This document shows positions 914 through 60,430 of a stretch of 64,000 bases of DNA, one piece after another (position 1 is the first letter of the stretch; each line of letters begins with the position of its first letter). A program made the position numbers and the translations under genes. The DNA is from Zestosphaera sp. (GTDB taxonomy: Archaea; Thermoproteota; Thermoprotei_A; Sulfolobales; NBVN01): the NCBI GenBank assembly GCA_038727705.1, contig JAVYVJ010000002.1, positions 359,051 to 423,050 of the forward strand, in the 5' to 3' direction. The notes beneath the pieces are model-generated. The model was not told the origin of the DNA, searched no databases, and saw nothing but the letters and a program-made list of their open reading frames with translations.

Positions 914-2380
914 TTAAGCCCCTTTCCCTTCTGAGAGGAGTCTTCTAGCGCAGTGCACTAGAGTGATCACTAGGAGGTTTGAGGCGAGTCCCCACACTAT
1001 GCCGTGTATTCCAAGCGGTTCTAGCTTCCATCCGTAGTACCTCATTAAGGCGAATATCCCTAACACCGTTAATTCGCCTGCTATCAGGCCGCTCGTCACC
1101 TCATGCTTTCTAAGGCTTTTCCAGAAGATACCTATGAAAAGGCCTGGCAGTAGTTGAGCCACACCTGCATAACCTACCAGGAGTAAATCCACTAAGAGTG
1201 CGGGGGAAGTGTATGCTAGGATCGTCGATACTACGCCTAAGCCCGCCACCGCCACTCTAGTGATGTTTATCAATTCCTTATCACCTATCTTAGGTTTGAA
1301 GACCTGCTGTATCAGGTTTCTCGAGATGGTGCTCGCTTGATCCAGGAGTATACCTGCGGCGGTGGAGAGCGATGCTGCAGCGCCGCCAGCGGCTATTAAG
1401 CCCAAGACGCTTGGCCCGAACGACAGGCCAACCAGGTTGAGGAATGCGTAGTCCGAGGACCTCAGCTTGATGCCTAGAGCGAGGGCGACTAAGCCCATGT
1501 GCGTGACCCACAGAGATCCCAGTATTAAATACCATGAGTTGAGAACCATGCCCTTCTTGAGCACTTTAACGTCCTTAGCCGTGAATAAGGTCTGGACTCT
1601 CTGAGACCAGCACCAGAAGCCTAACCCAGTCCCAACGACTGATGAAATGAACCAGGTTTCAGGCCTTAACCCTCCGGGGCCTGGGAGGGTCAGGTGTGCT
1701 GGGGACACGGACGCTACGGCATCGTAGAGGCCCGGCAGGCCGCCGAAATACTTCAGTATTAAGGCCCAACTACCGCCGAACATTGTTACGAGCATTATCG
1801 CCCCCAGGAACACGTTAGTAAGGGCTATGGACACCATGCCCCCCAGGAAGACGTACAGGATAACGAGACCGAGGACAGCCACGGAAAGGTGTAGTGAGGG
1901 CAGCATGCCGTACGACACTGTGTCCAATATTATCGAAACCGCTTGAATCTGTAGCTGAACGTACGGGATCTGAAAGACTATGGACACTATCGCGGCCAGA
2001 ACCATCAGCAGTTTGCTGTCATACCTCCACATAATGAAGTCGGAGAGCGTCATCAGATTATGTTTCTTAGCTAAGCTCCAGACGCGCGGCGCCAACAGGT
2101 ACCCAGCAACGTACCCCAGCAGTGAAGTGCCCCAGGCAAACATGGTGGCCGCCCCGTAGGTGTAGGAATATCCTGCAGTGCCCAGGAACGTGTAGCCGCT
2201 GTAGATGACTGCCGCGGAGTTCAGGAAAAACACTATAGTCCCTAACGTCCTCCCAGCGACTATATAAGTGTCAGCCCTTAAGGTCTTTAACCTCAGCCTC
2301 GAAGTTATTAACCCTATAGCCACCGATATGAAGATAACTGAGAGGACTATCGACGACGCGATGATTGGATCCTGATTCAA
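914..2380 (-). CDS. sodium:solute symporter (SSS/SSF) family transporter
   Basis: 488 aa, polytopic and hydrophobic throughout, Gly/Ala-rich helices, overall SSF-like layout. Paralogous in architecture to 12687..14237, and both are preceded by a small TM ORF. Confidence 0.8.
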   Translation of the reverse strand: MNQDPIIASSIVLSVIFISVAIGLITSRLRLKTLRADTYIVAGRTLGTIVFFLNSAAVIYSGYTFLGTAGYSYTYGAATMFAWGTSLLGYVAGYLLAPRVWSLAKKHNLMTLSDFIMWRYDSKLLMVLAAIVSIVFQIPYVQLQIQAVSIILDTVSYGMLPSLHLSVAVLGLVILYVFLGGMVSIALTNVFLGAIMLVTMFGGSWALILKYFGGLPGLYDAVASVSPAHLTLPGPGGLRPETWFISSVVGTGLGFWCWSQRVQTLFTAKDVKVLKKGMVLNSWYLILGSLWVTHMGLVALALGIKLRSSDYAFLNLVGLSFGPSVLGLIAAGGAAASLSTAAGILLDQASTISRNLIQQVFKPKIGDKELINITRVAVAGLGVVSTILAYTSPALLVDLLLVGYAGVAQLLPGLFIGIFWKSLRKHEVTSGLIAGELTVLGIFALMRYYGWKLEPLGIHGIVWGLASNLLVITLVHCARRLLSEGKGA

Positions 2381-2387
2381 GCCTCCC

Positions 2388-2612
2388 TCACCTCTCTAGC
2401 GTGTAGAGGATTGTCAACGCGGTTGCCGTGATCACCGAGACGAGTATGTAGTAGAACCAGAGTAAAGGAAGTCCCAAAACCTTAACATCAGCCCTATTGA
2501 CGAAGGGCAGCAGGACAGTCCAGAGGACGTATATGGCTATCCCTACGATCACCTGGTGAGCCTTAGGTCCTGAAGGAGCTTCCTCCAAGACACCACCCGT
2601 AGAATAAAGCAC
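2388..2612 (-). CDS. small 2-TM membrane protein, putative SSS-transporter accessory subunit (DUF3311-like)
   Basis: 74 aa with two hydrophobic helices. It ends 8 nt upstream of the symporter start. The same arrangement recurs at 14230..14448. Confidence 0.5.
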   Translation of the reverse strand: MLYSTGGVLEEAPSGPKAHQVIVGIAIYVLWTVLLPFVNRADVKVLGLPLLWFYYILVSVITATALTILYTLER

Positions 2613-2701
2613 GTTGAATTAAAAAGTTTTCTACGACATCCAACCTGAGTGATTTCCTTAAATATTCTCCCTAACAAACATCTTTATTAGAGTGTGCGAG
2701 A

Positions 2702-3613
2702 GTGACCATAGTTAATGAGTTTAGTGTAGCCTCCCCGCTGGATGCTAGTGAAGTTCTCACCATCCTAGCGGACCTCCAGCTCCACTTGAGTCTGTGGCCC
2801 GTTCTGGAGTCTCTAGCTGAGGTGTTAAGCGATAATGAGGTCTTAGCTGATCTGAAGGTGGGGGATTCCCTGAGCCGGGTACACCTTAAGATGAGCACAA
2901 GTAAAGAGGGTGAAGTTGCGGTCATAACGGTGGAGGGGCACGATGACTTGAGTTTGGAACTCAGGCTGAGCGTCGTGGGCAGGAAGTTGGTCGGCAGGCC
3001 CCTGACCTTAATTAGGGGGAGGATCGTGGTCAAGTCGGCCAACGAGAAGGCTCTGAAGCCGTACATTAAGACATTCGTTGAAGCCTATCAGAACAGGCTG
3101 ATCGGCGCGCTACCTACAGTACTTGATGCGTGGAGGAAGGGACTCGTCAAGAAGATGGGAGTGAGGGCCGCGGCACCGCCGCCGGTGGAGGCAGCCCCTA
3201 AAGAGCTACCTAAACGTGAGGAACTTCCTAAGCCTGAACTCAAGCTGGAGGGTGTGAACGTAGTAACGAGCCCCACAGCCCTTGATGATGAGGTGCTGGT
3301 AAGCAACATAATCCTTAAGTCCCACATCTTAAGCACGGTGAAGGAAGAGCTCAGCGGCCTCGAACTCCTGAGGAGATTAAGCGAAATGTACACCGGAACG
3401 GGACTTAAAACCCTCTACACACTCGCGATAGACGCTGAGGGCAACAAAGTCAGGGTATTGTTTAGAGATGATGCCATCGTGGGAGTTAGGGTTGAGCTAC
3501 GGGAAGGCACCATCATTAGCGGCGTAGATGCGGTGAAGAGGCTTAAGGAGCTGGACAAGAAGGTCTGGAGGATCTCCACCTATTCAATACCTAAGGAACT
3601 GTTTTCATCGTGA
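2702..3613 (+). CDS. hypothetical two-domain protein (N-terminal SRPBCC/CoxG-like fold suspected, Pro/Glu/Lys-rich linker, C-terminal alpha/beta domain)
   Basis: 303-aa ORF with good coding look. The linker is AAAPPPVEAAPKELPKREELPKPELK. The N-terminal 150 aa has the alternating beta/long terminal helix pattern of SRPBCC proteins, which is inference only. Confidence 0.55.
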   Translation: MTIVNEFSVASPLDASEVLTILADLQLHLSLWPVLESLAEVLSDNEVLADLKVGDSLSRVHLKMSTSKEGEVAVITVEGHDDLSLELRLSVVGRKLVGRPLTLIRGRIVVKSANEKALKPYIKTFVEAYQNRLIGALPTVLDAWRKGLVKKMGVRAAAPPPVEAAPKELPKREELPKPELKLEGVNVVTSPTALDDEVLVSNIILKSHILSTVKEELSGLELLRRLSEMYTGTGLKTLYTLAIDAEGNKVRVLFRDDAIVGVRVELREGTIISGVDAVKRLKELDKKVWRISTYSIPKELFSS

Positions 3614-3855
3614 TCTTAATGACCCCTCGATGCCCCTCCGCCGTTTCGGCATCACTAACGCAAAAAAACGTTAATTGACGCGGCTGGAAGAGCTTCGGCG
3701 AGCTTAGTGAGAGAGGTAACACGTCCCTCATTCATAGTTATGTCATGTGAGGAATTCTTGCCGCTAGGTAGGGAAGGAGATCCGCTCTTAAGCCGGGGTC
3801 TTCTCCCACACTAAAAGGCAGATTTTATCCGTTGAGACCGTGTGCGTCAACAGTC

Positions 3856-4533
3856 CTAAACCTTCTCGTGGTGCGGCCCCACGCTTCTTGAAATGTTCCT
3901 GATGAGGAAGCGAAGGGATTCAAGCAGTTCACGCACTGAACCTAACTCAGGTTTGGACACCACCTCAACTGCATTAAGCTCCTTGTATGCTGAAAGCTTG
4001 TAGATGGGTTTGGAGGTTGTGTCCACTATTCTGTTAAGCAGACCAACATCCTTAGGCTCCTCGTAGAAGACTTCGTAAATCCCTCTCGCAGTGCTTACTG
4101 TGGTCTTACTCAGCCTTTCTAGGCGTTCCCCAAGATCCTTTGCCAGGGTGTTCATAAGTCTTGACTCACCCCTCTTGACCGCGTGCAGATCCCTCAGAAC
4201 GTTTCTCCCGGTGAGCTCCAACATTATGGTTACCCTATCGTCGTGTCTCAACGCCTTGGCTACTGGGTAGTAGAAGAAGGAGTATCTGGGTGTGGTCGTG
4301 AGCAGTACGTAGGCCCTCCTCCCTTCACCGAGTTCGTACACGGCCTTATACCCGACGAGGTACCCTAGGAGGGTGTACTCCTTATCCCTAGGCCTCAGTT
4401 CCCTCTCCAACTCCTCAGTGAAATCCTTCATGAACTTAATCATCCTCCTCCTCATTCTGAAGTACCATAATGCGGCAGCGACCGACACTGCCATCAAAAC
4501 TGAGATCGCGATCGCTTCAAAGAGAGTGTTCAT
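3856..4533 (-). CDS. hypothetical N-terminally membrane-anchored protein (third gene of the ArsA-like operon)
   Basis: 225 aa with a single N-terminal TM (AIAISVLMAVSVAAALWYF) followed by RMRRR and a soluble domain. Its start overlaps the stop of the ArsA-like gene (ATGA). Confidence 0.6.
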   Translation of the reverse strand: MNTLFEAIAISVLMAVSVAAALWYFRMRRRMIKFMKDFTEELERELRPRDKEYTLLGYLVGYKAVYELGEGRRAYVLLTTTPRYSFFYYPVAKALRHDDRVTIMLELTGRNVLRDLHAVKRGESRLMNTLAKDLGERLERLSKTTVSTARGIYEVFYEEPKDVGLLNRIVDTTSKPIYKLSAYKELNAVEVVSKPELGSVRELLESLRFLIRNISRSVGPHHEKV

Positions 4534-5495
4534 GCATACCCCCTGACTACAACTACAGTGTCTCTTAACTTAACTATATCCTCAAGACTGGAAGGTGGGC
4601 TGCTGGCATGCGGGATCATGATGGACCTGCATTCTATAGACCTGAACTCCCTGAGCGTCTCCGCCTGCTCGGCGTAAGTTCCCAGACTAGCGGCCACTTC
4701 ATCTGGAAGGACTTTATTCATCACTAAGAGCTTAGGTTTAATGGTTAACTCGTTTTCTAGGAAGTTGAGGATCTCCCTCAGCTCGAACATCGGCAGGGGT
4801 TCCGGGTTCGTGACTACTATGTACGACGTTCTTAAGGGATTGCTTAGCACCTCCTTGACTCTGGAGTATGTGTTCTTCAGTTCGTAGAGTTTTTTCAACG
4901 CTGGGTCCCTCATCTCGAACTCCTTGCCGAGGGTCTTAGCTATGACGTATCTGAGTGACACTATCCTCTCCCTGATGTTGATCAGCTTGTCGAGCCAGAG
5001 CAGGTAGAGCCTCGGCAGGGCTAGGGTTCTGAGGGAGACGCCTGTCGGCGGCGTGTCGACCACGACATGCTTATAACCTTTGTCCCCGTACGTGTCAGCC
5101 AGCCACCTTAGAAACACCTCCTCCTCCACCCCTGGCGCATACTTCATGGCTTTAGTGACGTCCTCCAGGTTGAGGACTGTAAGTGACGGAAACATCTCAG
5201 CCATGAGGTCTGAGTAGCTCGACATCAACTTCCTGGCTGAAGCCTCTATGTCCAGCTGGCATGCCGAGAGGTTCTCCGCAACCTCCACGGTCTCCATAGG
5301 CTTGCGTAAGCCAAGGTACTTCAGTATGTGTTTAGCCGGGTCGAAACTCACTAGGAGGGTCCTGCCCTGAGACCTCAACTCGTTAGCTACTAAAATGGAT
5401 GTCGAGGTCTTGCCGACGCCGCCCTTCCCCAACACCACGATTACGTGAGGCTCCCCTTCAAGGGGCTTAAGCAACTCAGTTAAAACACTCACCAC
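4530..5495 (-). CDS. ArsA/Get3-family P-loop ATPase
   Basis: Deviant Walker A GKGGVGKTS, DPAKH (DPAH-like), PGVEEE switch region, DTPPTGVSLRTL (DTAPTGHTL-like). 321 aa. Confidence 0.85.
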   Translation of the reverse strand: MVSVLTELLKPLEGEPHVIVVLGKGGVGKTSTSILVANELRSQGRTLLVSFDPAKHILKYLGLRKPMETVEVAENLSACQLDIEASARKLMSSYSDLMAEMFPSLTVLNLEDVTKAMKYAPGVEEEVFLRWLADTYGDKGYKHVVVDTPPTGVSLRTLALPRLYLLWLDKLINIRERIVSLRYVIAKTLGKEFEMRDPALKKLYELKNTYSRVKEVLSNPLRTSYIVVTNPEPLPMFELREILNFLENELTIKPKLLVMNKVLPDEVAASLGTYAEQAETLREFRSIECRSIMIPHASSPPSSLEDIVKLRDTVVVVRGYA

Positions 5496-5782
5496 TCGCC
5501 ACCCAAGGAGGACATGAGGTCCCCTAGGACATCACCACCCCTCACAGCCCTAGACTCAAGGATTTTCAACTCACTCTTGAGGGCGTCGAGCAATTCTAGA
5601 CTGAGAATCGGGGAGACGGTCCTAACGCCTACCAGAGTCCCTAGAATCATCGTTACAAACGCTGCCTCCAGCTCGTTGTGCTCCAGCACTAGCGCGCTGA
5701 CGCTCTCCTCTAATATGGCTTGGTTGATACCCTTGATAAAGGCGATCACCTCGCTTAAGATTCTCCTCATTAACCTAAGCAA
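5489..5782 (-). CDS. hypothetical small helical protein (first gene of the ArsA-like operon)
   Basis: 97-aa ORF that overlaps the ArsA-like start by 7 nt. No recognisable motif. Confidence 0.45.
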   Translation of the reverse strand: MLRLMRRILSEVIAFIKGINQAILEESVSALVLEHNELEAAFVTMILGTLVGVRTVSPILSLELLDALKSELKILESRAVRGGDVLGDLMSSLGGEW

Positions 5783-7738: not shown

Positions 7739-7984
7739 CTAACTCAGCTTCCTCCCGGTCTTAGCTTCAACCAGTTTTTTGAGGTTAGCGGGTACCTCAC
7801 CAAGCCACAACGCAGGGCCTAAGATAATCAGCAGGAAGCCTGCGGAGATCAGCAAGGCGTCGGCGGCGACCTGACCCTTGATCCCTATCCCCCCGACCGT
7901 CAGGCCGACGTAGAGTATCTCATAAGCGAATATTAGGAGGCTTAGAATGGTGATCACCAGACCTAAGACCTCCTTGGCGCCCAC
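7739..7984 (-). CDS. small 2-TM membrane protein upstream of cstA
   Basis: 81 aa with two hydrophobic helices. The stop is 1 nt from the cstA start, so co-transcription is likely. Confidence 0.45.
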   Translation of the reverse strand: MGAKEVLGLVITILSLLIFAYEILYVGLTVGGIGIKGQVAADALLISAGFLLIILGPALWLGEVPANLKKLVEAKTGRKLS

Positions 7985-53562: not shown

Positions 53563-54811
53563 GTATCGAGCTCTTGTCAAGCGCGTTAACCATTAGATAC
53601 TTATCGCTCAACGCCCTCAGGTCTTTATTGTCGCCTTGAATCATTACAGAGGAGAGTCTGGCGTTAGCCTCTCTAAGCTTACGCCTTAAAGTGGTTACGG
53701 AGAGCGCGTCCTCACCATCCGTTATCACCACAATGTCGGAATCCCTCTTAACGAGGCCGCTACCAACTATGTCCTCACACGCTGTCACGATCGCCTTAGT
53801 TATGTCAGTACCTCCACCGCTCTTGACCCTGGCTAAGTTTTTGAGTAACTCAAGGAACTCGGTAGGGCTCGCACGCCTGGACACCTTAATCAGGTCGTGC
53901 GGCATGCCGTCAAAGAACCTCATGTAGAACTCACGAACCTCCCTCCTAGACTTTATCAGGAGGGCTATAGCTGTTGCCTTAGCCCAATCTATCTTCTCAC
54001 CCTCCATGCTCCCCGACTTGTCTGTGAGAAGGTAGAGGGGGCCTAGGGACTTGCTCACCTTCTTGTCGTAGAGCAGGAGCTTGGACTCAGTGTAGCTCAG
54101 GAGGAGATATTTTGTCGGCAACGCTAGTTGCGCGGGAACCAGCCTCTCCAAATCATCGCCCAGGTCGTACCCGTCGAACTCCCCCCTGTTAAACCTGTCA
54201 TACCTCTTTCTAGCTTTCCTGGTGATGTCGGGTATTAATGAGAGGACCTCCAATATCTTGCTTACGTCCACGCTCCTCGACAACCTAAGGATCTTCTCCG
54301 AGTCCTCGTCCAGATCGAACTCACTCCCCACACCGGGTTGCAACCCCGACATGTAGAGTCTCTCAATATTCTTCATGGTCTCAGCCTCCTGAACGCTATT
54401 CCTCAGGGACTCCCTAACCACGGACTTCAGCGCGTTGCTGTTTATGCTGCCTGAATCCCTCGAGGTCAGGAGCTCCCTCCTCTCATCGAGCAATTCTACG
54501 AGGTACTGGATTACGGAGATCGAGATGAGAGTGGATATGAATGAGTTCAGGATTGTATGTTGCTTGAGTTTGACGAGCTCCTCCGATTCGCTGACGGCCT
54601 TGACGAGGCTGTAGTGGAGGCCGCCCCCCTCATGCTCCTCCACAACTATGGCGTGAGGCAGGTAGAGGATGTAGAAGAGATCGGTAGCTAGATCCGTGGT
54701 CAGGAGACTGTGCCTAAGACCCAACTTAGCCGAGAGCTTAACTATCTTCTCCCCCCTATAGCGAACCACAGGATCCTCATAATCGATGCCCCTTAAGAAA
54801 CCCCCGCTCAA
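53543..54811 (-). CDS. VWA-domain protein (ViaA/CoxE-like partner of the MoxR-type ATPase)
   Basis: C-terminal VWA with the MIDAS motif LLTDKSGSMEG plus downstream GGGTD and VVITDGED. Its start overlaps the ATPase stop by 4 nt. Confidence 0.8.
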   Translation of the reverse strand: MSGGFLRGIDYEDPVVRYRGEKIVKLSAKLGLRHSLLTTDLATDLFYILYLPHAIVVEEHEGGGLHYSLVKAVSESEELVKLKQHTILNSFISTLISISVIQYLVELLDERRELLTSRDSGSINSNALKSVVRESLRNSVQEAETMKNIERLYMSGLQPGVGSEFDLDEDSEKILRLSRSVDVSKILEVLSLIPDITRKARKRYDRFNRGEFDGYDLGDDLERLVPAQLALPTKYLLLSYTESKLLLYDKKVSKSLGPLYLLTDKSGSMEGEKIDWAKATAIALLIKSRREVREFYMRFFDGMPHDLIKVSRRASPTEFLELLKNLARVKSGGGTDITKAIVTACEDIVGSGLVKRDSDIVVITDGEDALSVTTLRRKLREANARLSSVMIQGDNKDLRALSDKYLMVNALDKSSILKIVEA

Positions 54812-57060
54812 ACCCTATCAGCCCTCCTGCCCACTAACTCCGTAATGCTGCTCACCAAACTCAGGACATCCTCGCCGAGCCTCAGGACCTGAGGATCCTG
54901 GGACTCCCTCATGATGCTGAGGATCCTCGCCTTAGTCACCTCCAGCTCCCTCTCTATAGTTTCGAACTTCGCAGCCACGAACGAGCTCTCTATCCCCTCC
55001 AGCGACTTCACGTACTGCAGCAACTCCTTCAGGTTAGTCTTTATCTCACTCAACTCCCTCAAGTACTTGTAGGAGGTCTTCAATTCCTCCGCAAGAACTG
55101 CGTTAACCTTCTCGAGATCGTCCCACTCACGCGTTGCCACGTACTTTACGGTGAGCAGGTCCTCCTCAACCGCGTACCTCCTCCCACCTATTAACGCGTT
55201 GGCGGCGATCACCTTCAACGATTTCCCCTTACGTCTGTCAGTTAGGTGGATCCCCCTACTCTCTAGGGCGGCGAAGAGCCTCAACAGCTTCCCCTCAACA
55301 CCACTTAAATCCACTTCATAGAGGGAGGCGTTAATCCTTTTCAGCTCGTCAACGCTCAGGATCCTGCCCCCATCACCTGCCTTACTCCCTAGCGTGTTCG
55401 CTCTCTCCAACTCCCACGAGGCTCTGAGGAGACCTCTCCATAAATCCTCCTGGACAGGTCTGACGAAGTGTCTTAGAAGGAATCTATCGTACACCGACTG
55501 GATCTCAGGGTCTTCGGGCACCTCGTTACTGGCTCCGAAAAGCGTCCACAGATCAACCCTCAACTCCGTGAAGCCATCGTACAGCATCCTCTCCTGAAGT
55601 AGAGTGTTCAGGGCGTTCAATATGGCTGAGTTGGCTTTGAAGATCTCGTCTAGGAAGGCTATCTGCGCATCAGGCAACTTGCCCGCGGTTAACCTGACGT
55701 ACCTGCCGTCCTCCAGGGCTTTAATGTCGAGAGGGCCGAACAGCTCCGAAGGTTCCGTGTACTTGGTCAGCAGGTACTTGAAGAACTTAGCGTTCAGGAG
55801 CTCGGCCGCCCTCCTAACCAGGGCTGACTTAGCTGTGTTGTGGGAGAGGAGTCCGTTAGTGAAGAATGAGTGTGTATCCGGCACGTGAAAGTCGTAAACC
55901 CTTACCCACCCCTCAAGCCTTCTAACGCTCTTGACCTCATCCCACTCGAAGCCTGCGACGTGCATCCCCCCAGCACGGCACTCCATCCTCAATGACCCCC
56001 CAAACTTATGCCGGAGGGTGTCAAGCCCTACCATCTCAACGAGCCTCCGGAGGTTACACGACCCCTCCACGCTGAGGACGTAGCCGCCGTACGCACTGCG
56101 GTCGCGTATGGAGGAGAGCACGCCATACCTCAGCAGAAGTATTTGAACACCCTCTAAGAACGTCCTGCTTCTACCCCTCAGGGTCAAACACGCTCTGGAG
56201 CCCCACTCTAAGACACTACCGCACTCTAAAACACTCCTCAGAAACGCTGCAGAGACTCTGTCCGGTGAGGCGAGGATCGACCAAGGCACTCGTTCCCTCC
56301 CCCTCCCAGCAAGCCACTTAAACAGCTTGACTAAGTACCCTGAACTATACTTAACTATCTGTGAGGAACGTGGCTGGATCACTCGAGGCTCTAAGTTGAA
56401 TAAGTCCTTCATGAGCGTCTCGATTCTCCCACGTAACTCCCCCTCATCAATGCCGACCCTGAACCCTACGGAGTAGTTGCTTAGGTAGCTACCTCTCATG
56501 ACGAACGCTCCTAAAACCTCGGCCAGCCTCTCATCCAATACGCCAACACTCCTAACGCCCGACCGCTTAAGCCTCACGCCAAGCAGTTCAGCGCTCGGGA
56601 TGCTTACGTAATGTGTTGGTGAGGGTAGTTGCGTTAAAACCCTGACCTTATCACCCCTCCTGAGATCCCTCATGCTGACCCAGCCTCTATCAGTCAGCAC
56701 CGGATGGTTTGGCGTTCCGCGAAGTCTGAAACCCCTTCCTGTAATAACCTCGTACGTCTCCCAGACATCGTACACGTGGAGTTCAGTGGCCCTACCGGGG
56801 GGGAAGACGGGAAAGTCCGCTATGTAGACCCCGGGCACGAGGTTCTTCGCCACATCGTCTAAGTAGAGTAGCTTGCCATCCTCTGAGGAGATGATTGTAT
56901 CTCCTGTAACGCAGCCCGGCTCCCCTACGAGGAGGGCGTGCTCGCCTGTGAGGAGGGCTAAGACTACCACACGCGACTCCTCATCCCTGCCCACGAAAGG
57001 TCTCTTAAGCTCCTCCTCAAACTTCTGAACCCTAGTAGCTATATCCCGAAGCCCAGACAC
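54808..57060 (-). CDS. RavA/MoxR-like AAA+ ATPase precursor containing an intein in the Walker A loop
   Basis: The exteins read FVGRDEESRVVVLALLTGEHALLVGEPG | TAKSALVRRAAELL...FGPLDIKALEDGRYVRLTAGKLPDAQIAFLDEIFKANSAILNALNTLLQER. Both are RavA-like blocks (Walker A GxPGxAKS, Walker B FLDEI). Confidence 0.9.
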   Translation of the reverse strand: MSGLRDIATRVQKFEEELKRPFVGRDEESRVVVLALLTGEHALLVGEPGCVTGDTIISSEDGKLLYLDDVAKNLVPGVYIADFPVFPPGRATELHVYDVWETYEVITGRGFRLRGTPNHPVLTDRGWVSMRDLRRGDKVRVLTQLPSPTHYVSIPSAELLGVRLKRSGVRSVGVLDERLAEVLGAFVMRGSYLSNYSVGFRVGIDEGELRGRIETLMKDLFNLEPRVIQPRSSQIVKYSSGYLVKLFKWLAGRGRERVPWSILASPDRVSAAFLRSVLECGSVLEWGSRACLTLRGRSRTFLEGVQILLLRYGVLSSIRDRSAYGGYVLSVEGSCNLRRLVEMVGLDTLRHKFGGSLRMECRAGGMHVAGFEWDEVKSVRRLEGWVRVYDFHVPDTHSFFTNGLLSHNTAKSALVRRAAELLNAKFFKYLLTKYTEPSELFGPLDIKALEDGRYVRLTAGKLPDAQIAFLDEIFKANSAILNALNTLLQERMLYDGFTELRVDLWTLFGASNEVPEDPEIQSVYDRFLLRHFVRPVQEDLWRGLLRASWELERANTLGSKAGDGGRILSVDELKRINASLYEVDLSGVEGKLLRLFAALESRGIHLTDRRKGKSLKVIAANALIGGRRYAVEEDLLTVKYVATREWDDLEKVNAVLAEELKTSYKYLRELSEIKTNLKELLQYVKSLEGIESSFVAAKFETIERELEVTKARILSIMRESQDPQVLRLGEDVLSLVSSITELVGRRADRV
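55837..56913 (-). mobile_element. 359-aa intein with a LAGLIDADG-type endonuclease domain
   Basis: Cys1 (TGC at 56913-56911) in CVTGDTIISS (block A); GTPNHPVLT (block B); LAGLIDADG-like helices LAEVLGAFVMRGS and AAFLRSVLECGS; VYDFHVPDTHSFFTNGLLSHN (blocks F/G, terminal Asn at 55839-55837); +1 Thr. Confidence 0.85.
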
Positions 57061-57581: not shown

Positions 57582-57807
57582 CTGTTCAAGAATCCCCCGC
57601 CTGTGACCCGGTTTGCAGGGGTTTAAAGAGCTGGAATTCATAGATGTGGGGGGAGGTTTTGGACTGCCCTACAGACCCCGGGAGGAGCCTTTGAACCTTA
57701 CGGAGCTCGGCTCCGGCGCGTCTGTCCCTAAAGAACTTATTAAAGGTTTTGTAGACTTTAATGCTTGTCCTAGGTGTTTCGAGTTGGTTGAGGGCTCCAG
57801 CAGGTCG

Positions 57808-59004
57808 GTGAATACTGGGGCGCGAGCGTTGTTGACCGCTCTGATAGCGTTCTACACTATAGTGTATTTCCACAGGGTCATGACGGGCGTTATGAAGGTC
57901 GAGGTCGATCGCGTGGCGTCTGTACACAACGTCAGCCCGGACGTACTTATGGCCCTCCTGTCATCAGCTTACTTCTACGCCTACACCGTGGCTCAACTGT
58001 TCGTCGGCGCCCTGACGGATACCTTCGGCATTAAGAGGGTTGGGTTCCTGTTCGGTGTTGTGATGTGCGCGGGGGGCCTGATTATGTGTCTGATGACGCC
58101 GGCCTCCCTGATCATCGGGAGGTTCTTAGTCGGTTTCTCAGCCGCCGCGGCCTTCCTGGCCTACCAGAGGGCCTCCTCCCTCAGCTACGACGCAGGACAT
58201 CAGGGTAGGTTAACATCCTACGCATTAACGCTCGGTAACTTAGGCGGGCTAGCAGCCACCTACCCACTACGCCTCACACTCAACACTGTCGGCTTGAGAA
58301 CCAGCCTGATGGTTCTGACGCTGCTCGCGCTAATCACCGCCACCTGCGTATTAATAACCTCCGACGACCTAGGTTCTGGGAAGGGTGTTGAAGACCTTAA
58401 GAAGACCGTGATGTACCTTGGAGTGCTGGCCAGAGACCCGCACGTCTGGGGCGTTAGTGTTGGGGCTGTAGGGATATACGGCGTTACACTAGCTTACCAG
58501 ACCTCATGGGGGCAGAAGCACATGATGGAGGCGTTCGGCATGAGTGCCGAGGCCGCTAGCCAGTACTTAATGCTGTTAGCGTTGGCATTCACGCTGACGT
58601 GCCCGCTGTCAGGCTTCCTAAGCGACAGGGTCTTAAAGCGCAGAAGGCCCGTCTTCCTAGCCGGATCGCTCGCATCGGCAACCTCATGGATGCTCATGCT
58701 GTACTCAACCTTAACCCATGACGTGGTAGTCCTAGCAACGTCCCTAACTATCTTAGGAATTGCATCAGGACTTCAGATAATAGCCTCACCCATGATTAAG
58801 GAGAGCTACCCGGTAAAGTACTCGGCAACGGCCATCGCGCTCCTGAACATAACGCTGTTCTCCAGCGCTGCAGTATTACAGACTGCGGCACCCCTGCTCA
58901 GCCTGCGTGAAGCAATCCTCACACACCTCATCATATCCCTAGCCGGCGCTTCTTTAGCGTTGACTGCAACGCGTGAGACCCTAAGACAAGCGAGCGCAAC
59001 CTAG
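57808..59004 (+). CDS. MFS transporter
   Basis: 12-TM layout, with an MFS loop 2-3 region (LTDTFGIKRVGF). The ORF is open from 57613, but the first 65 codons look like a foreign gene fragment. A GTG at 57808 gives a typical 399-aa MFS protein. The last 10 codons plus the stop codon (32 nt, 58973-59004) lie inside the 61-bp direct repeat. Confidence 0.75.
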   Translation: MNTGARALLTALIAFYTIVYFHRVMTGVMKVEVDRVASVHNVSPDVLMALLSSAYFYAYTVAQLFVGALTDTFGIKRVGFLFGVVMCAGGLIMCLMTPASLIIGRFLVGFSAAAAFLAYQRASSLSYDAGHQGRLTSYALTLGNLGGLAATYPLRLTLNTVGLRTSLMVLTLLALITATCVLITSDDLGSGKGVEDLKKTVMYLGVLARDPHVWGVSVGAVGIYGVTLAYQTSWGQKHMMEAFGMSAEAASQYLMLLALAFTLTCPLSGFLSDRVLKRRRPVFLAGSLASATSWMLMLYSTLTHDVVVLATSLTILGIASGLQIIASPMIKESYPVKYSATAIALLNITLFSSAAVLQTAAPLLSLREAILTHLIISLAGASLALTATRETLRQASAT

Positions 59005-59033
59005 TGGGGCCACGGGGATTCGAACCCCGGACC
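58973..59033. repeat. direct repeat copy A (MFS 3' end plus a 29-nt tRNA-Pro 3' fragment)
   Basis: 59 of 61 nt are identical to 60004-60064, at an offset of exactly 1,031 bp. The mismatches are at 59012 (A vs G) and 59021 (C vs T). Confidence 0.9.
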
Positions 59034-59384
59034 GCTGGACTCCATCGGCATGCAGTAGATGATGTCGGCAACCACGTGAATCATACGTCATTACACCTCC
59101 ACCATTCACTTCAAGACTGGAGTCAAGCATACTGCGACTCAAGTGAGGTGGTGAGGGTAGGGTTGAAGCGTTGCAAGGTCCCCTAAAACATACTCTAGAC
59201 CCTACATCACAACCGAATCCTCCACGCCTGAACCCCTCATGAAGCGGGATCGGGATTTGAGACTAGACACCATAGACAGTTACTTATGGGGAACGCGTTC
59301 AATACACGTGATTCAGCAAGCGATAAGCTGACCCAGGTGAGGCGTTTAATAGCATGTTTAACATCGTTAACGGTAGGGTAGCAT

Positions 59385-59633
59385 ATGAGGGAAAGCAGTG
59401 AGGAGTTATTGAAGCGCATTACATGCGATCCCAGGGTAATGGTTGGTAAACCTGTAATACGCGGCACGAGGATAACCATAGACTTGATTTTAGAGTTACT
59501 CGCAGCTGGAATGACCCCTGAGGAGATAGCGGAGGACTACAGTATAAGCGTTGAGGACGTCCGCGCCGCTCTACTGTACGCTGCCAAAGCTTTGGGTAGG
59601 GAGGAGACGCTGATTGTCGAGTCGCAGACTTAA
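59385..59633 (+). CDS. DUF433-family antitoxin-like protein
   Basis: 82 aa. ITCDPRVMVGKPVIRGTRITIDLILELLAAGMTPEEIAEDYSISVEDVRAALLYA is the DUF433 signature. Confidence 0.8.
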   Translation: MRESSEELLKRITCDPRVMVGKPVIRGTRITIDLILELLAAGMTPEEIAEDYSISVEDVRAALLYAAKALGREETLIVESQT

Positions 59634-59982
59634 ACTACTCCTAGATGAGAGCATAGGGCTGAAACCATATAGAGAGCTCAAGGAGAGGGGATACGACGTG
59701 CAGAGCGTTATCGCAGAGAACCGTGGGGCATTAGACGAGGACGTAATCAAGCACTCCATGCAGCACAATAAGATCATCGTAACGATGGATAAGGATTTCG
59801 GTTACCTAGCTCAAGCATACAATCCGCCGGGGATCGTGCTCCTCAGGTTAAGAGAGCCGCTAATACCGCGTAGGTTGGAAGCGATACTACGTGCGCTAAG
59901 TCTCGGTGAAGACCTCTACGGCTATATAGTTATAGTGACGGAGACCCGCATAAGGAGGAGGCAAATCCGCGTAACAAAATGA
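59614..59982 (+). CDS. DUF5615 / PIN-like (Mut7-C-type) toxin-like protein
   Basis: KLLLDESIG N-terminus, DEDVIKHSMQHNKIIVTMDKDF. The TTG start overlaps the DUF433 gene by 20 nt, which is the usual DUF433-DUF5615 pairing. Confidence 0.75.
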   Translation: MSSRRLKLLLDESIGLKPYRELKERGYDVQSVIAENRGALDEDVIKHSMQHNKIIVTMDKDFGYLAQAYNPPGIVLLRLREPLIPRRLEAILRALSLGEDLYGYIVIVTETRIRRRQIRVTK

Positions 59983-60003
59983 TGCGGAACACCAGCACAG
60001 CGT

Positions 60004-60064
60004 GTGAGACCCTAAGACAAGCGAGCGCAACCTAGTGGGGCCGCGGGGATTTGAACCCCGGACC
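60004..60064. repeat. direct repeat copy B (32-nt flank plus positions 45-73 of the intact tRNA-Pro)
   Basis: See copy A. The repeat ends in the variable loop of the tRNA. Confidence 0.9.
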
Positions 60065-60109
60065 ACGGGGACCCGAACCCCGCATTCTACCAAGCTAAAC
60101 TACGGCCCC
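60036..60109 (-). tRNA. tRNA-Pro (anticodon CGG)
   Basis: The reverse strand reads GGGGCCGTAGTTTAGCTTGGTAGAATGCGGGGTTCGGGTCCCCGTGGTCCGGGGTTCAAATCCCCGCGGCCCCA. It has a 7-bp acceptor, a 4-bp D stem (two G-U pairs), the anticodon arm CGGGG/TTCGGGT/CCCCG with G37, and the T arm CGGGG/TTCAAAT/CCCCG. There is no intron and no encoded CCA. A TTATATAT box lies about 25-30 nt upstream. Confidence 0.9.
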
Positions 60110-60235: not shown

Positions 60236-60430
60236 CTGGTTAGATGTCCTTACTGCGGTTATGAAGGGGAGTTTAAGTCCTTAAGGAATCCCTGGAAGTT
60301 CCGCACCTACGAGGTAAGGAGGCTTCAATGCCCTAAATGCAACGGGATTTTCAACCACTACAAGAATCTTGCGGCTGGAGGTAAGCCGGAATTCACTATA
60401 AGGGTGAACCCGAGGCCTCTGAAGAGGTAG
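60236..60430 (+). CDS. possible small zinc-ribbon protein (CPYC...CPKC) without a canonical start codon
   Basis: The open frame reads (LVR)CPYCGYEGEFKSLRNPWKFRTYEVRRLQCPKCNGIFNHYKNLAAGGKPEFTIRVNPRPLKR*. Only CTG/GTT codons precede the first Cys after an in-frame TGA. Confidence 0.35.
   Translation: MVRCPYCGYEGEFKSLRNPWKFRTYEVRRLQCPKCNGIFNHYKNLAAGGKPEFTIRVNPRPLKR

Follow-up and report, generated by a model that had tools for sequence, protein, structure and literature searches.

Introduction

Integration into tRNA genes, orphan tRNA fragments and elements that are flanked by attachment (att) sites and lack a recombinase are already known. In archaea, degeneration after integration into a tRNA gene has been documented (PMC3718332, PMC4158269, PMC9897764). 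The cis-mobilizable elements (CIMEs) of Firmicutes retain attL and attR without genes for integration or transfer, use the integrase of a related element and form tandem arrays by accretion (PMC6323972). Tycheposons of Prochlorococcus integrate repeatedly at one tRNA gene. Neighbouring elements are split by a partial tRNA copy, older ones are pushed inward, and remnants and scattered partial tRNAs are also present in these islands (bioRxiv 10.1101/2020.12.28.424599). Cassette arrays of integrons have been reported in Archaea too (PMC9668308). Here we describe a 1,031-bp unit in a 64,000-nt stretch of a Zestosphaera sp. contig (JAVYVJ010000002.1, positions 359,051–423,050; hereafter the window). 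The unit carries a single toxin–antitoxin (TA) gene pair between two copies of a tRNA-Pro 3' part.

The pair consists of a DUF433 (COG2442) protein and a DUF5615 PIN-like protein. PIN–COG2442 pairs were predicted to be type II TA systems by Makarova et al. in 2009, with the same two domains, the antitoxin gene first and overlapping genes as in the window (PMC2701414). A pair of this type is listed for Synechocystis (PMC4963859). The family has been described mainly from cyanobacteria and Chloroflexi, as a prediction. The open-access full-text literature yielded no description, for archaea, of ~1-kb units with tRNA halves as boundaries and nothing but a TA pair inside, or of arrays of such units. 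We propose, with a probability of about 0.5, that the unit is a minimal TA cassette without an integrase, which has att-like repeats and is mobilised in trans.

Results

A direct repeat derived from tRNA-Pro brackets the cassette

All coordinates follow the numbering of the window, and labels such as L005 denote the loci used for comparison. A repeat scan detected a direct repeat of 72 nt (58967–59038 and 59998–60069) with 66 of 72 positions identical (92%) and a spacing of 1,031 bp. The core of the repeat (58973–59033 and 60004–60064) is identical at 59 of 61 positions (E = 1e-24, BLAST of the cassette against the whole window), exactly as the sequence-only reading had reported for this offset. 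The same BLAST comparison gave no third copy in the 64 kb.

Copy B (attR-like, 59998–60069) contains a non-coding duplicate of the tail of an MFS transporter gene (59998–60035) and the 3' part of a functional tRNA. This tRNA-Pro(CGG) gene (60036–60109, minus strand) was located by ARAGORN and scores 62.7 bits in Rfam, where the gathering score is 29. It is the sole tRNA gene that the two programs place in the window, and it is 100% identical to the tRNA-Pro(CGG) genes of L032 and L033. Copy B thus comprises tRNA positions 45–73 (60036–60064) and 32–38 nt of the 3' flank, in agreement with the earlier assignment of these positions plus a 32-nt flank.

Copy A (attL-like, 58967–59038) is formed by the MFS tail itself (58967–59004) and an orphan 3' fragment of tRNA-Pro (59005–59033, minus strand), which corresponds to positions 45–73, the T-arm and the 3' acceptor strand. 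The stop codon of the MFS gene (TAG, 59002–59004) directly touches the fragment. Its similarity to the tRNA stops at the variable loop, and the sequence-only reading was right to describe a 29-nt fragment that diverges there. That reading had also recognised the flank of copy A as the MFS tail, which is correct; the count of 10 codons is not, as the flank holds 29 coding nt and the stop, slightly fewer than 10. In the T-loop, the orphan fragment reads TTCGAAT in all strains, whereas the intact gene and all its orthologues read TTCAAAT. The tRNA part of copy B equals that of the orthologous tRNAs and its MFS tail is invariant across strains, whereas copy A varies. As to which copy is native, a crossover at either edge of the repeat or gene conversion is possible; both fit the data.

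The site is uninterrupted in other species

In four other species the MFS gene and the tRNA-Pro gene are convergent, 20–100 bp apart and without an insert (L032, L033, L058 and L014, the last equal to contig L034). All of these loci belong to other species and genera. L032 (Ca. Zestomicrobium) and L033 (a related metagenome-assembled genome, MAG) share the synteny on the left side, namely an intein-bearing MoxR ATPase, a small helix-turn-helix (HTH) gene and the MFS gene, which is followed after 40–100 nt by a convergent tRNA-Pro(CGG). In L014 and L058 the MFS gene is followed by a convergent tRNA-Pro(UGG). In L013, with an MFS protein 80% identical to that of the window, the MFS stop abuts the 3' end of a tRNA as in copy A, and the contig stops there.

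Since the MFS gene and tRNA-Pro are adjacent without an insert in four other species, the tail-to-tail arrangement is the ancestral state and the 959–1,031 bp between them are an insertion specific to the Zestosphaera species. The sequence-only reading had taken the repeats for an attL/attR-like duplication caused by insertion into the 3' part of a tRNA gene. The uninterrupted orthologous loci, together with an intact tRNA that equals its orthologues and a divergent orphan, bear this out. An empty site, suggested there as something to look for in related genomes, thus exists in four other species and was found in none of the conspecific contigs.

Locus L144, from the same sample as L013, was considered as the cassette beyond the end of the L013 contig. 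It was rejected, as a tRNA-Arg half, and not tRNA-Pro, comes after its TA pair. Upstream of the MFS gene, L014 (5469–5654) and L058 (4611–4796) contain two tandem tRNA-like genes of 91 nt which ARAGORN could not type; these probably contain introns.

The cassette is fixed in the species

Exact-protein look-ups recovered the identical arrangement in six complete MAGs, in one contig that ends inside the cassette and in one Logan unitig (99.3–100% identical). The most divergent strain, L005, differs from the window at 76 positions in 13.5 kb (0.56%). The 346-nt spacer accounts for six single-nucleotide polymorphisms (SNPs), the TA coding sequence (598 nt) for one. Divergence of the cassette resembles that of its flanks and is least in the TA genes. 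Differences of copy A from L005 are clustered (58994, 58996, 58999 and 59012). L006 has a further difference at 58992 and a 1-nt insertion at 59006, in the acceptor strand of the orphan. Position 59012 is polymorphic (A/G), and A is found only in the lineage of the window. Copy B has no SNP in any strain.

The cassette is therefore older than the split of the sampled strains and is fixed in the species. Its TA genes are constrained, the orphan and the spacer are not, and the orphan fragment is a decaying, non-functional relic.

An empty allele is expected to join position 58966 to 60070 through a single 72-nt copy, with the left flank ending in GCGTTGACTG, the copy running from CAACGCGTGAGACC to CCCCGGACC and the right flank starting with ACGGGGACCCGAAC. 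Junctions of this kind (MFS anchor on the left, tRNA anchor on the right, 60–85 nt) had no match in the JGI metagenomes; the power of this search is low, as proteins of the species are recorded only from NCBI and Logan.

Logan unitig L148 (SRR21619495; 1,061 bp) corresponds to window positions 58973–60033 and has the same 30-mer at both ends. Because the repeat makes a loop in the assembly graph, a circle and the integrated form look alike in such a unitig. Its copy A represents a third haplotype with the MFS tail of the window type and G at 59012.

One TA pair and no integrase between the repeats

The gene for the DUF433 protein, a predicted DNA-binding antitoxin (59385–59633, plus strand; Pfam PF04255, E = 2.1e-24), overlaps by 20 nt with the gene for the DUF5615 PIN-like protein, the predicted toxin (59614–59982, plus strand; PF18480, E = 6.8e-16). 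Both genes lie on the same strand with the antitoxin first, and the toxin stop is only 15 nt from copy B. A TATA-like element, TTTAATAG, at 59345–59352, 33 nt ahead of the DUF433 start, is a putative promoter. The toxin of the window, used as the reference row, keeps every invariant column of an alignment of 29 sequences, including Glu12, Asp41, Asp59 and Asp61; Asp11 is nearly invariant. By domains, gene order and acidic residues the pair is predicted to be a type II TA system with a PIN-like toxin and a DUF433 antitoxin.

These are the only ORFs of the cassette with a family match in Pfam. The earlier view that nothing lies between the repeats other than the TA pair and ~350 bp of non-coding DNA therefore stands. 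The non-coding arm, or spacer (59039–59384), spans about 346–351 nt. Its imperfect hairpin (59090–59162) folds at −26 kcal/mol with z = −3.1. Although the hairpin that had been pointed out is present, this signal is modest and was chosen post hoc, and the whole 351-nt spacer has no excess structure (z = −1.1 and −0.2). A search for an RNA gene in the spacer with Rfam at E ≤ 1 gave only tRNA-like matches.

The statement that no integrase is encoded between the repeats was confirmed with Pfam, PHROGs and HMMER. No meaningful integrase relic was detected in 59034–59384 (all frames of at least 25 aa against Pfam and PHROGs, E ≤ 1). The longest frame touching the spacer (91 aa, 58990–59262, minus strand) gave two weak matches to long proteins, each in 4–5 stretches, and no integrase when searched with HMMER against 1.84 billion representatives. 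Frames that cross copy A have no similarity to an integrase split in the manner of SSV, and at the other end the toxin stops 15 nt before copy B. To the left of the locus, no integrase was found among the 25 of 34 matched PHROG families listed for the 52 ORFs of 917–54811. With flanking att-like sites and no integration or transfer genes among its identified ORFs, the cassette resembles a CIME. A transposon or miniature inverted-repeat transposable element was rejected: no terminal inverted repeats join the ends of the cassette, and the duplication of 61–72 nt is not a short target-site duplication.

The cassette has no match among plasmids (PLSDB), phages (INPHARED) or in IMG/VR. The comparison of the spacer and TA genes with such collections, which the sequence-only reading had suggested, thus gave no relatives. 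The tRNA-Pro 3' part likewise has no match in IMG/VR. Outside the species, the nearest toxin homologue is 73% identical.

Related TA pairs form cassettes and arrays at tRNA-Arg genes

A scan of JGI metagenomes with the toxin alignment returned 80 loci. ARAGORN placed few tRNA genes in them. A search for flanking direct repeats revealed tRNA-like repeats around the TA pair, which belong to a module of two parts. The first part is an antisense tRNA-Arg 3' half that extends from the CCA end as far as the beginning of the anticodon stem. It is followed by a conserved motif of ~90 nt with TTATAAA, the inverted repeat TGTCCCA…TGGGACA, GAATTCATACC and TAGTATATGGGACA (L074 2325–2418; L076 3276–3367 and 6405–6498; L077 810–899 and 1786–1884; others). 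Neither Rfam nor IMG/VR contains a match to the motif, which may serve as a promoter, an operator or an arm site for a recombinase. The T-arm of tRNA-Arg gave one match in IMG/VR, the end of an ordinary tailed provirus beside its terminase gene.

A profile of half and motif matches 150–370 nt upstream of the DUF433 gene in L064, L065, L067, L068, L070–L074, L076, L077, L080 and L097–L099. In geometry and strand relation to the TA genes, the tRNA-Arg half corresponds to copy A of the window. L079 has just the half upstream of the DUF433 gene, at a distance of ~540 nt. Copies that consist of the half alone often lie 3' of the toxin gene. First-pass ARAGORN and repeat scans of L019, L021 and L026 had detected no tRNA; the profile search later gave degenerate tRNA-Arg halves in L019. 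The closest homologues of the window pair (L019, L066 and L144; 69–73%) lie beside tRNA-Arg halves in opposite orientation.

In two loci, a unit contains only this TA pair between tRNA-Arg copies. The unit of L077 (within 750–1884) is 976 bp long. In L145 (954–4288, from an NCBI MAG) a unit of 965 bp is followed by two more TA pairs and an intact tRNA-Arg(CCG). The array of L076 (3215–7691) consists of a half, a DUF433/DUF5615 pair, a half, an AF2212-like and PIN pair, a half, a further AF2212-like and PIN pair, a half, a UPF0175 gene, an MNT and HEPN pair and an intact tRNA-Arg(TCG). Its units measure 1190, 973, 968 and 1263 bp, and all four halves depart from the tRNA sequence at the same position. 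L074 (array 2267–5540), L067 and L080 have further units with VapBC-like, RelE/ParE-like, UPF0175 and DUF3368, and DUF5678 and retropepsin-like pairs, and L079 carries a HicAB pair. The cargo of the arrays is almost wholly made of two-gene modules of the TA type.

All halves of the arrays are oriented as the intact gene and lie on its 3' side, each followed by a cassette arm. Cassettes are shared between loci in differing orders and with differing neighbours: the PIN cassette of L064 matches L076 5533–6224, and L079 3343–3700 matches L076 6831–7192. One cassette is 94.6% identical in L074 and L098, which have unrelated DNA upstream. The flanks of the arrays consist of housekeeping genes of the chromosome (peptidase M1, a member of the bile-acid/Na+ symporter family, PfkB, ProRS and isocitrate dehydrogenase). 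No integrase was found among 143 ORFs of 15 loci, nor among the 20 largest ORFs scanned individually.

In a rough neighbor-joining distance tree of antitoxin and toxin, the pair of the window nests in one large clade that is marked by the association with half-tRNAs; more distant clades lack it. For this statement eight loci were checked with Rfam, seven of them without the module. The cassette of the window is the only case seen on tRNA-Pro. Comparison of these sequences suggests that it is one case of a recurrent kind in hot-spring Thermoprotei, namely stackable single-TA units of 0.9–1.3 kb bounded by tRNA 3' halves.

Cassettes of DUF5678 and a retropepsin-like aspartyl protease occupy array positions that otherwise hold TA pairs (L067 2806–3453, L102 2549–3249). 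Such pairs may be a TA-like module that has not been described. In L094, a perfect 28-nt direct repeat unrelated to tRNA, TATATAAGAGCTCTTTTCAGGGAATCTA (3624–3651 and 4375–4402, spacing 751 bp), tightly flanks a DUF433/DUF5615 pair of a more distant clade. L076 has, at 7741–7798 (minus strand), a sub-threshold match to the C/D-box small RNA sR14 (29.2 bits, gathering score 38), immediately upstream of its intact tRNA-Arg.

Neighbouring genes

The MFS transporter gene (57784–59004, plus strand; Pfam MFS_1, E = 1.3e-30) ends with its last ~12 codons and the stop in copy A. Homologues of 389–413 aa begin near residue 58–70 of the 463-aa ORF of the window, which makes TTG 57784 or GTG 57808 the probable start codon. 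The region between the small HTH gene and MFS contains, 1.3 kb upstream of the cassette, a 102-nt internal piece of a Zestosphaera diaminopimelate decarboxylase gene (57616–57717). It encodes residues 214–247 of 418 with 33 of 34 aa identical, and the full gene is absent from the window. The piece is in frame with the MFS ORF, which implies that the 463-aa MFS proteins annotated in the MAGs start too far upstream. In L013 the HTH–MFS intergenic region measures just 88 nt.

Further to the left, a MoxR-like AAA ATPase gene (54808–57060, minus strand) contains an intein with a LAGLIDADG domain, which is kept in L013, L032 and L033. On the right side, a small Cys-rich ORF (60236–60430, plus strand) with a weak zinc-ribbon (LysW-like) match (E = 0.01) lies between tRNA-Pro and a YjbQ/UPF0047 gene.

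Discussion

A model for insertion and retention

According to the proposed model, a small circular DNA consisting of the TA operon, an arm of ~350 bp and a tRNA 3' part with its 3' flank would have exchanged reciprocally (Campbell-type) with the chromosomal tRNA-Pro(CGG) gene, which stood tail to tail with the MFS gene. Joined to the 5' part of the tRNA, copy B would restore the complete gene together with its native 3' trailer. Copy A would be left as a useless 3' fragment at the MFS stop. One may speculate that keeping the native trailer on the rebuilt tRNA is of benefit.

The recombinase would come from outside the cassette and would most likely be a tRNA-targeting tyrosine integrase that acts in trans from a virus or plasmid. 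An enzyme of this specificity is favoured because archaeal viruses and plasmids (PMC4158269, PMC3718332) and CIMEs (PMC6323972) offer analogies; the tRNA sites of Prochlorococcus, occupied by one element after another, are a further parallel. Host homologous recombination would be the fallback agent, and for the window a serious one, because the shared segment is long and extends past the tRNA. The 38-nt extension implies that the incoming DNA already carried the MFS tail of this species; an imprecise earlier excision followed by re-entry would give such a molecule.

Plausibly, the TA pair holds the cassette in place by addiction, with a stable nuclease toxin and a labile DNA-binding antitoxin. 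Addiction would explain a fixed cassette with conserved TA genes, while the orphan and the spacer drift. In arrays, the newest unit would be the one next to the intact tRNA. The uniform polarity of the arrays is what serial Campbell-type integration into a tRNA 3' half predicts, and the cassette of the window would be the case of a single unit.

Weighing the explanations

Several observations weigh against a mobile cassette. The repeat includes 38 nt of the MFS tail outside the tRNA, whereas the tRNA-Arg halves of the related cassettes share only a few nt past the CCA end. A clean att core would account less well for this overhang than homologous recombination or an imprecise excision at an earlier time. 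Every conspecific contig carries the cassette, and none has an empty-site allele. No circular form, helper integrase or virus or plasmid bearing attP was found in the searched plasmid, phage and IMG/VR collections. The window cassette itself is not seen moving, as its nearest outside toxin homologue is only 73% identical. Its spacer has no detectable similarity to other TA loci or to the motif of the tRNA-Arg cassettes, so that the kinship with these cassettes rests on the TA proteins (64–73% identity) and the architecture; a short resemblance of the spacer to the tRNA-Arg motif (GAATCATAC..TCATTAC) failed in blastn-short and was dropped. Finally, the related loci are metagenome fragments of 2–8 kb with ~4 kb on each side, in which a more distant integrase would be missed.

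The main rival is decay of a full-size virus or plasmid that entered tRNA-Pro with its own integrase and lost its interior by deletions, which spared the att copies, some junk DNA and an addictive TA pair. Such a course has good precedent, since archaeal tRNA genes are well-established sites at which viruses and plasmids integrate and later degenerate (PMC3718332, PMC4158269, PMC9897764). The spacer also looks like junk DNA: its 346 bp evolve faster than the surroundings (six SNPs relative to L005) and have no fold signal. Imprecise excision or deletion would account for the MFS tail in the repeat as well. However, no frame of the spacer retains a trace of an integrase or other element gene, and precise end points would be required of the deletions on both sides, because the toxin stop is only 15 nt from copy B. 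Furthermore, the same end state, one TA pair in 0.9–1.3 kb between tRNA halves, recurs often and in arrays with different TA families, and repeated independent decay is unparsimonious. We therefore consider decay viable but less likely. The sequence-only reading had named both a heavily reduced element and a very small mobilisable TA cassette; the latter has gained from the ~1-kb single-TA units and arrays of the relatives, and the former keeps this lesser standing.

A dedicated recombinase might not have been involved at all. Host recombination or repair would then have brought in the TA DNA, with the tRNA as an incidental site, either by a homologous single crossover with DNA (circular or a fragment) of a conspecific in which the stretch was already present or by repair of a break that duplicated ~70 bp and captured foreign DNA. 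The extension of the repeat well outside the tRNA is readily explained in this way. The diaminopimelate decarboxylase fragment (57616–57717) attests patchwork insertion at the locus, and the clustered strain differences of copy A (58992–58999) resemble tracts of gene conversion or recombination. On the other hand, an inner repeat boundary inside the tRNA, at the variable loop, and a rebuilt intact tRNA are the signature of integration targeted to tRNA genes. In many independent contigs, a tRNA 3' half forms the boundary of relatives in the TA clade, and the tRNA position is fixed. Chance repair would not yield this pattern; we regard an origin by host recombination alone as improbable. Split tRNA genes occur in some hyperthermophilic archaea, and the sequence-only reading had offered a functional 3' half, trans-spliced to a 5' half elsewhere, as an alternative for the orphan (59005–59033). 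Zestosphaera is a member of the Desulfurococcales, not of the Thermoproteales. The orphan does retain a foldable T-arm, but position 45, where it begins, is not among the known split sites, and at a distance of 1 kb there is an intact tRNA-Pro(CGG) with the same sequence as its orthologues. The acceptor strand has the A/G polymorphism at 59012 and the 1-nt insertion of L006, the fragment with its upstream 67 nt has no excess structure (z = −0.2) and the window contains no 5' half. This alternative is effectively refuted. The TA cassette mobilised in trans remains our preferred explanation.

Significance

Footprints of integration into tRNA genes are routine, and that of the window taken alone would be a small curiosity; its weight comes from the recurrence in relatives. 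Should the cassettes prove to be genuinely mobile, few known site-specific integrative elements would be smaller. The spread and build-up of TA modules in hyperthermophilic archaea, where they are very numerous, would then have an explanation, and archaea would have an integron-like form of gene capture with tRNA genes as docking sites. Arrays of this kind yield many partial tRNAs and thereby confused tRNA annotation and broken metagenome assemblies.

Comparison with known systems

Archaeal viruses and plasmids with integrases of the SSV or pNOB8 type, including cases of 'gene capture', share with the cassette the tRNA 3' target, repeats made of the tRNA 3' part and a rebuilt tRNA next to an orphan. 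These elements are 5–40 kb long and encode an integrase; in the SSV type, its gene is divided between the att sites. In contrast, the cassette has 1 kb with no integrase or fragments of one, and its repeat reaches 38 nt farther than the tRNA. CIMEs come from bacteria, mostly measure several kb and derive from integrative and conjugative or integrative and mobilizable elements, whereas the window cassette is archaeal with a single TA pair as cargo. Tycheposons, from marine cyanobacteria, differ in having their own tyrosine recombinase and replication genes and in being much larger.

TA cassettes are frequent in chromosomal integrons. Like the arrays of tRNA halves, integrons hold ~1-kb, promoter-poor cassettes, mostly of one or two genes, with a structured recombination site between them and in variable order. 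Identity with an integron was rejected, as the scanned ORFs of the window and related loci include no integrase and the separators are tRNA halves. In contrast to integrons, the arrays have no IntI, attI or attC, and they end in a functional tRNA; the likeness is one of organisation only. We advance, as a tentative idea, an integron-like cassette capture of Thermoprotei on tRNA-Arg and tRNA-Pro. TA circles of ~1 kb with a tRNA 3' half as att site would be inserted, excised and shuffled by a trans-acting, tRNA-specific integrase and would build arrays for addiction or defence; the cassette of the window would be an array of one unit.

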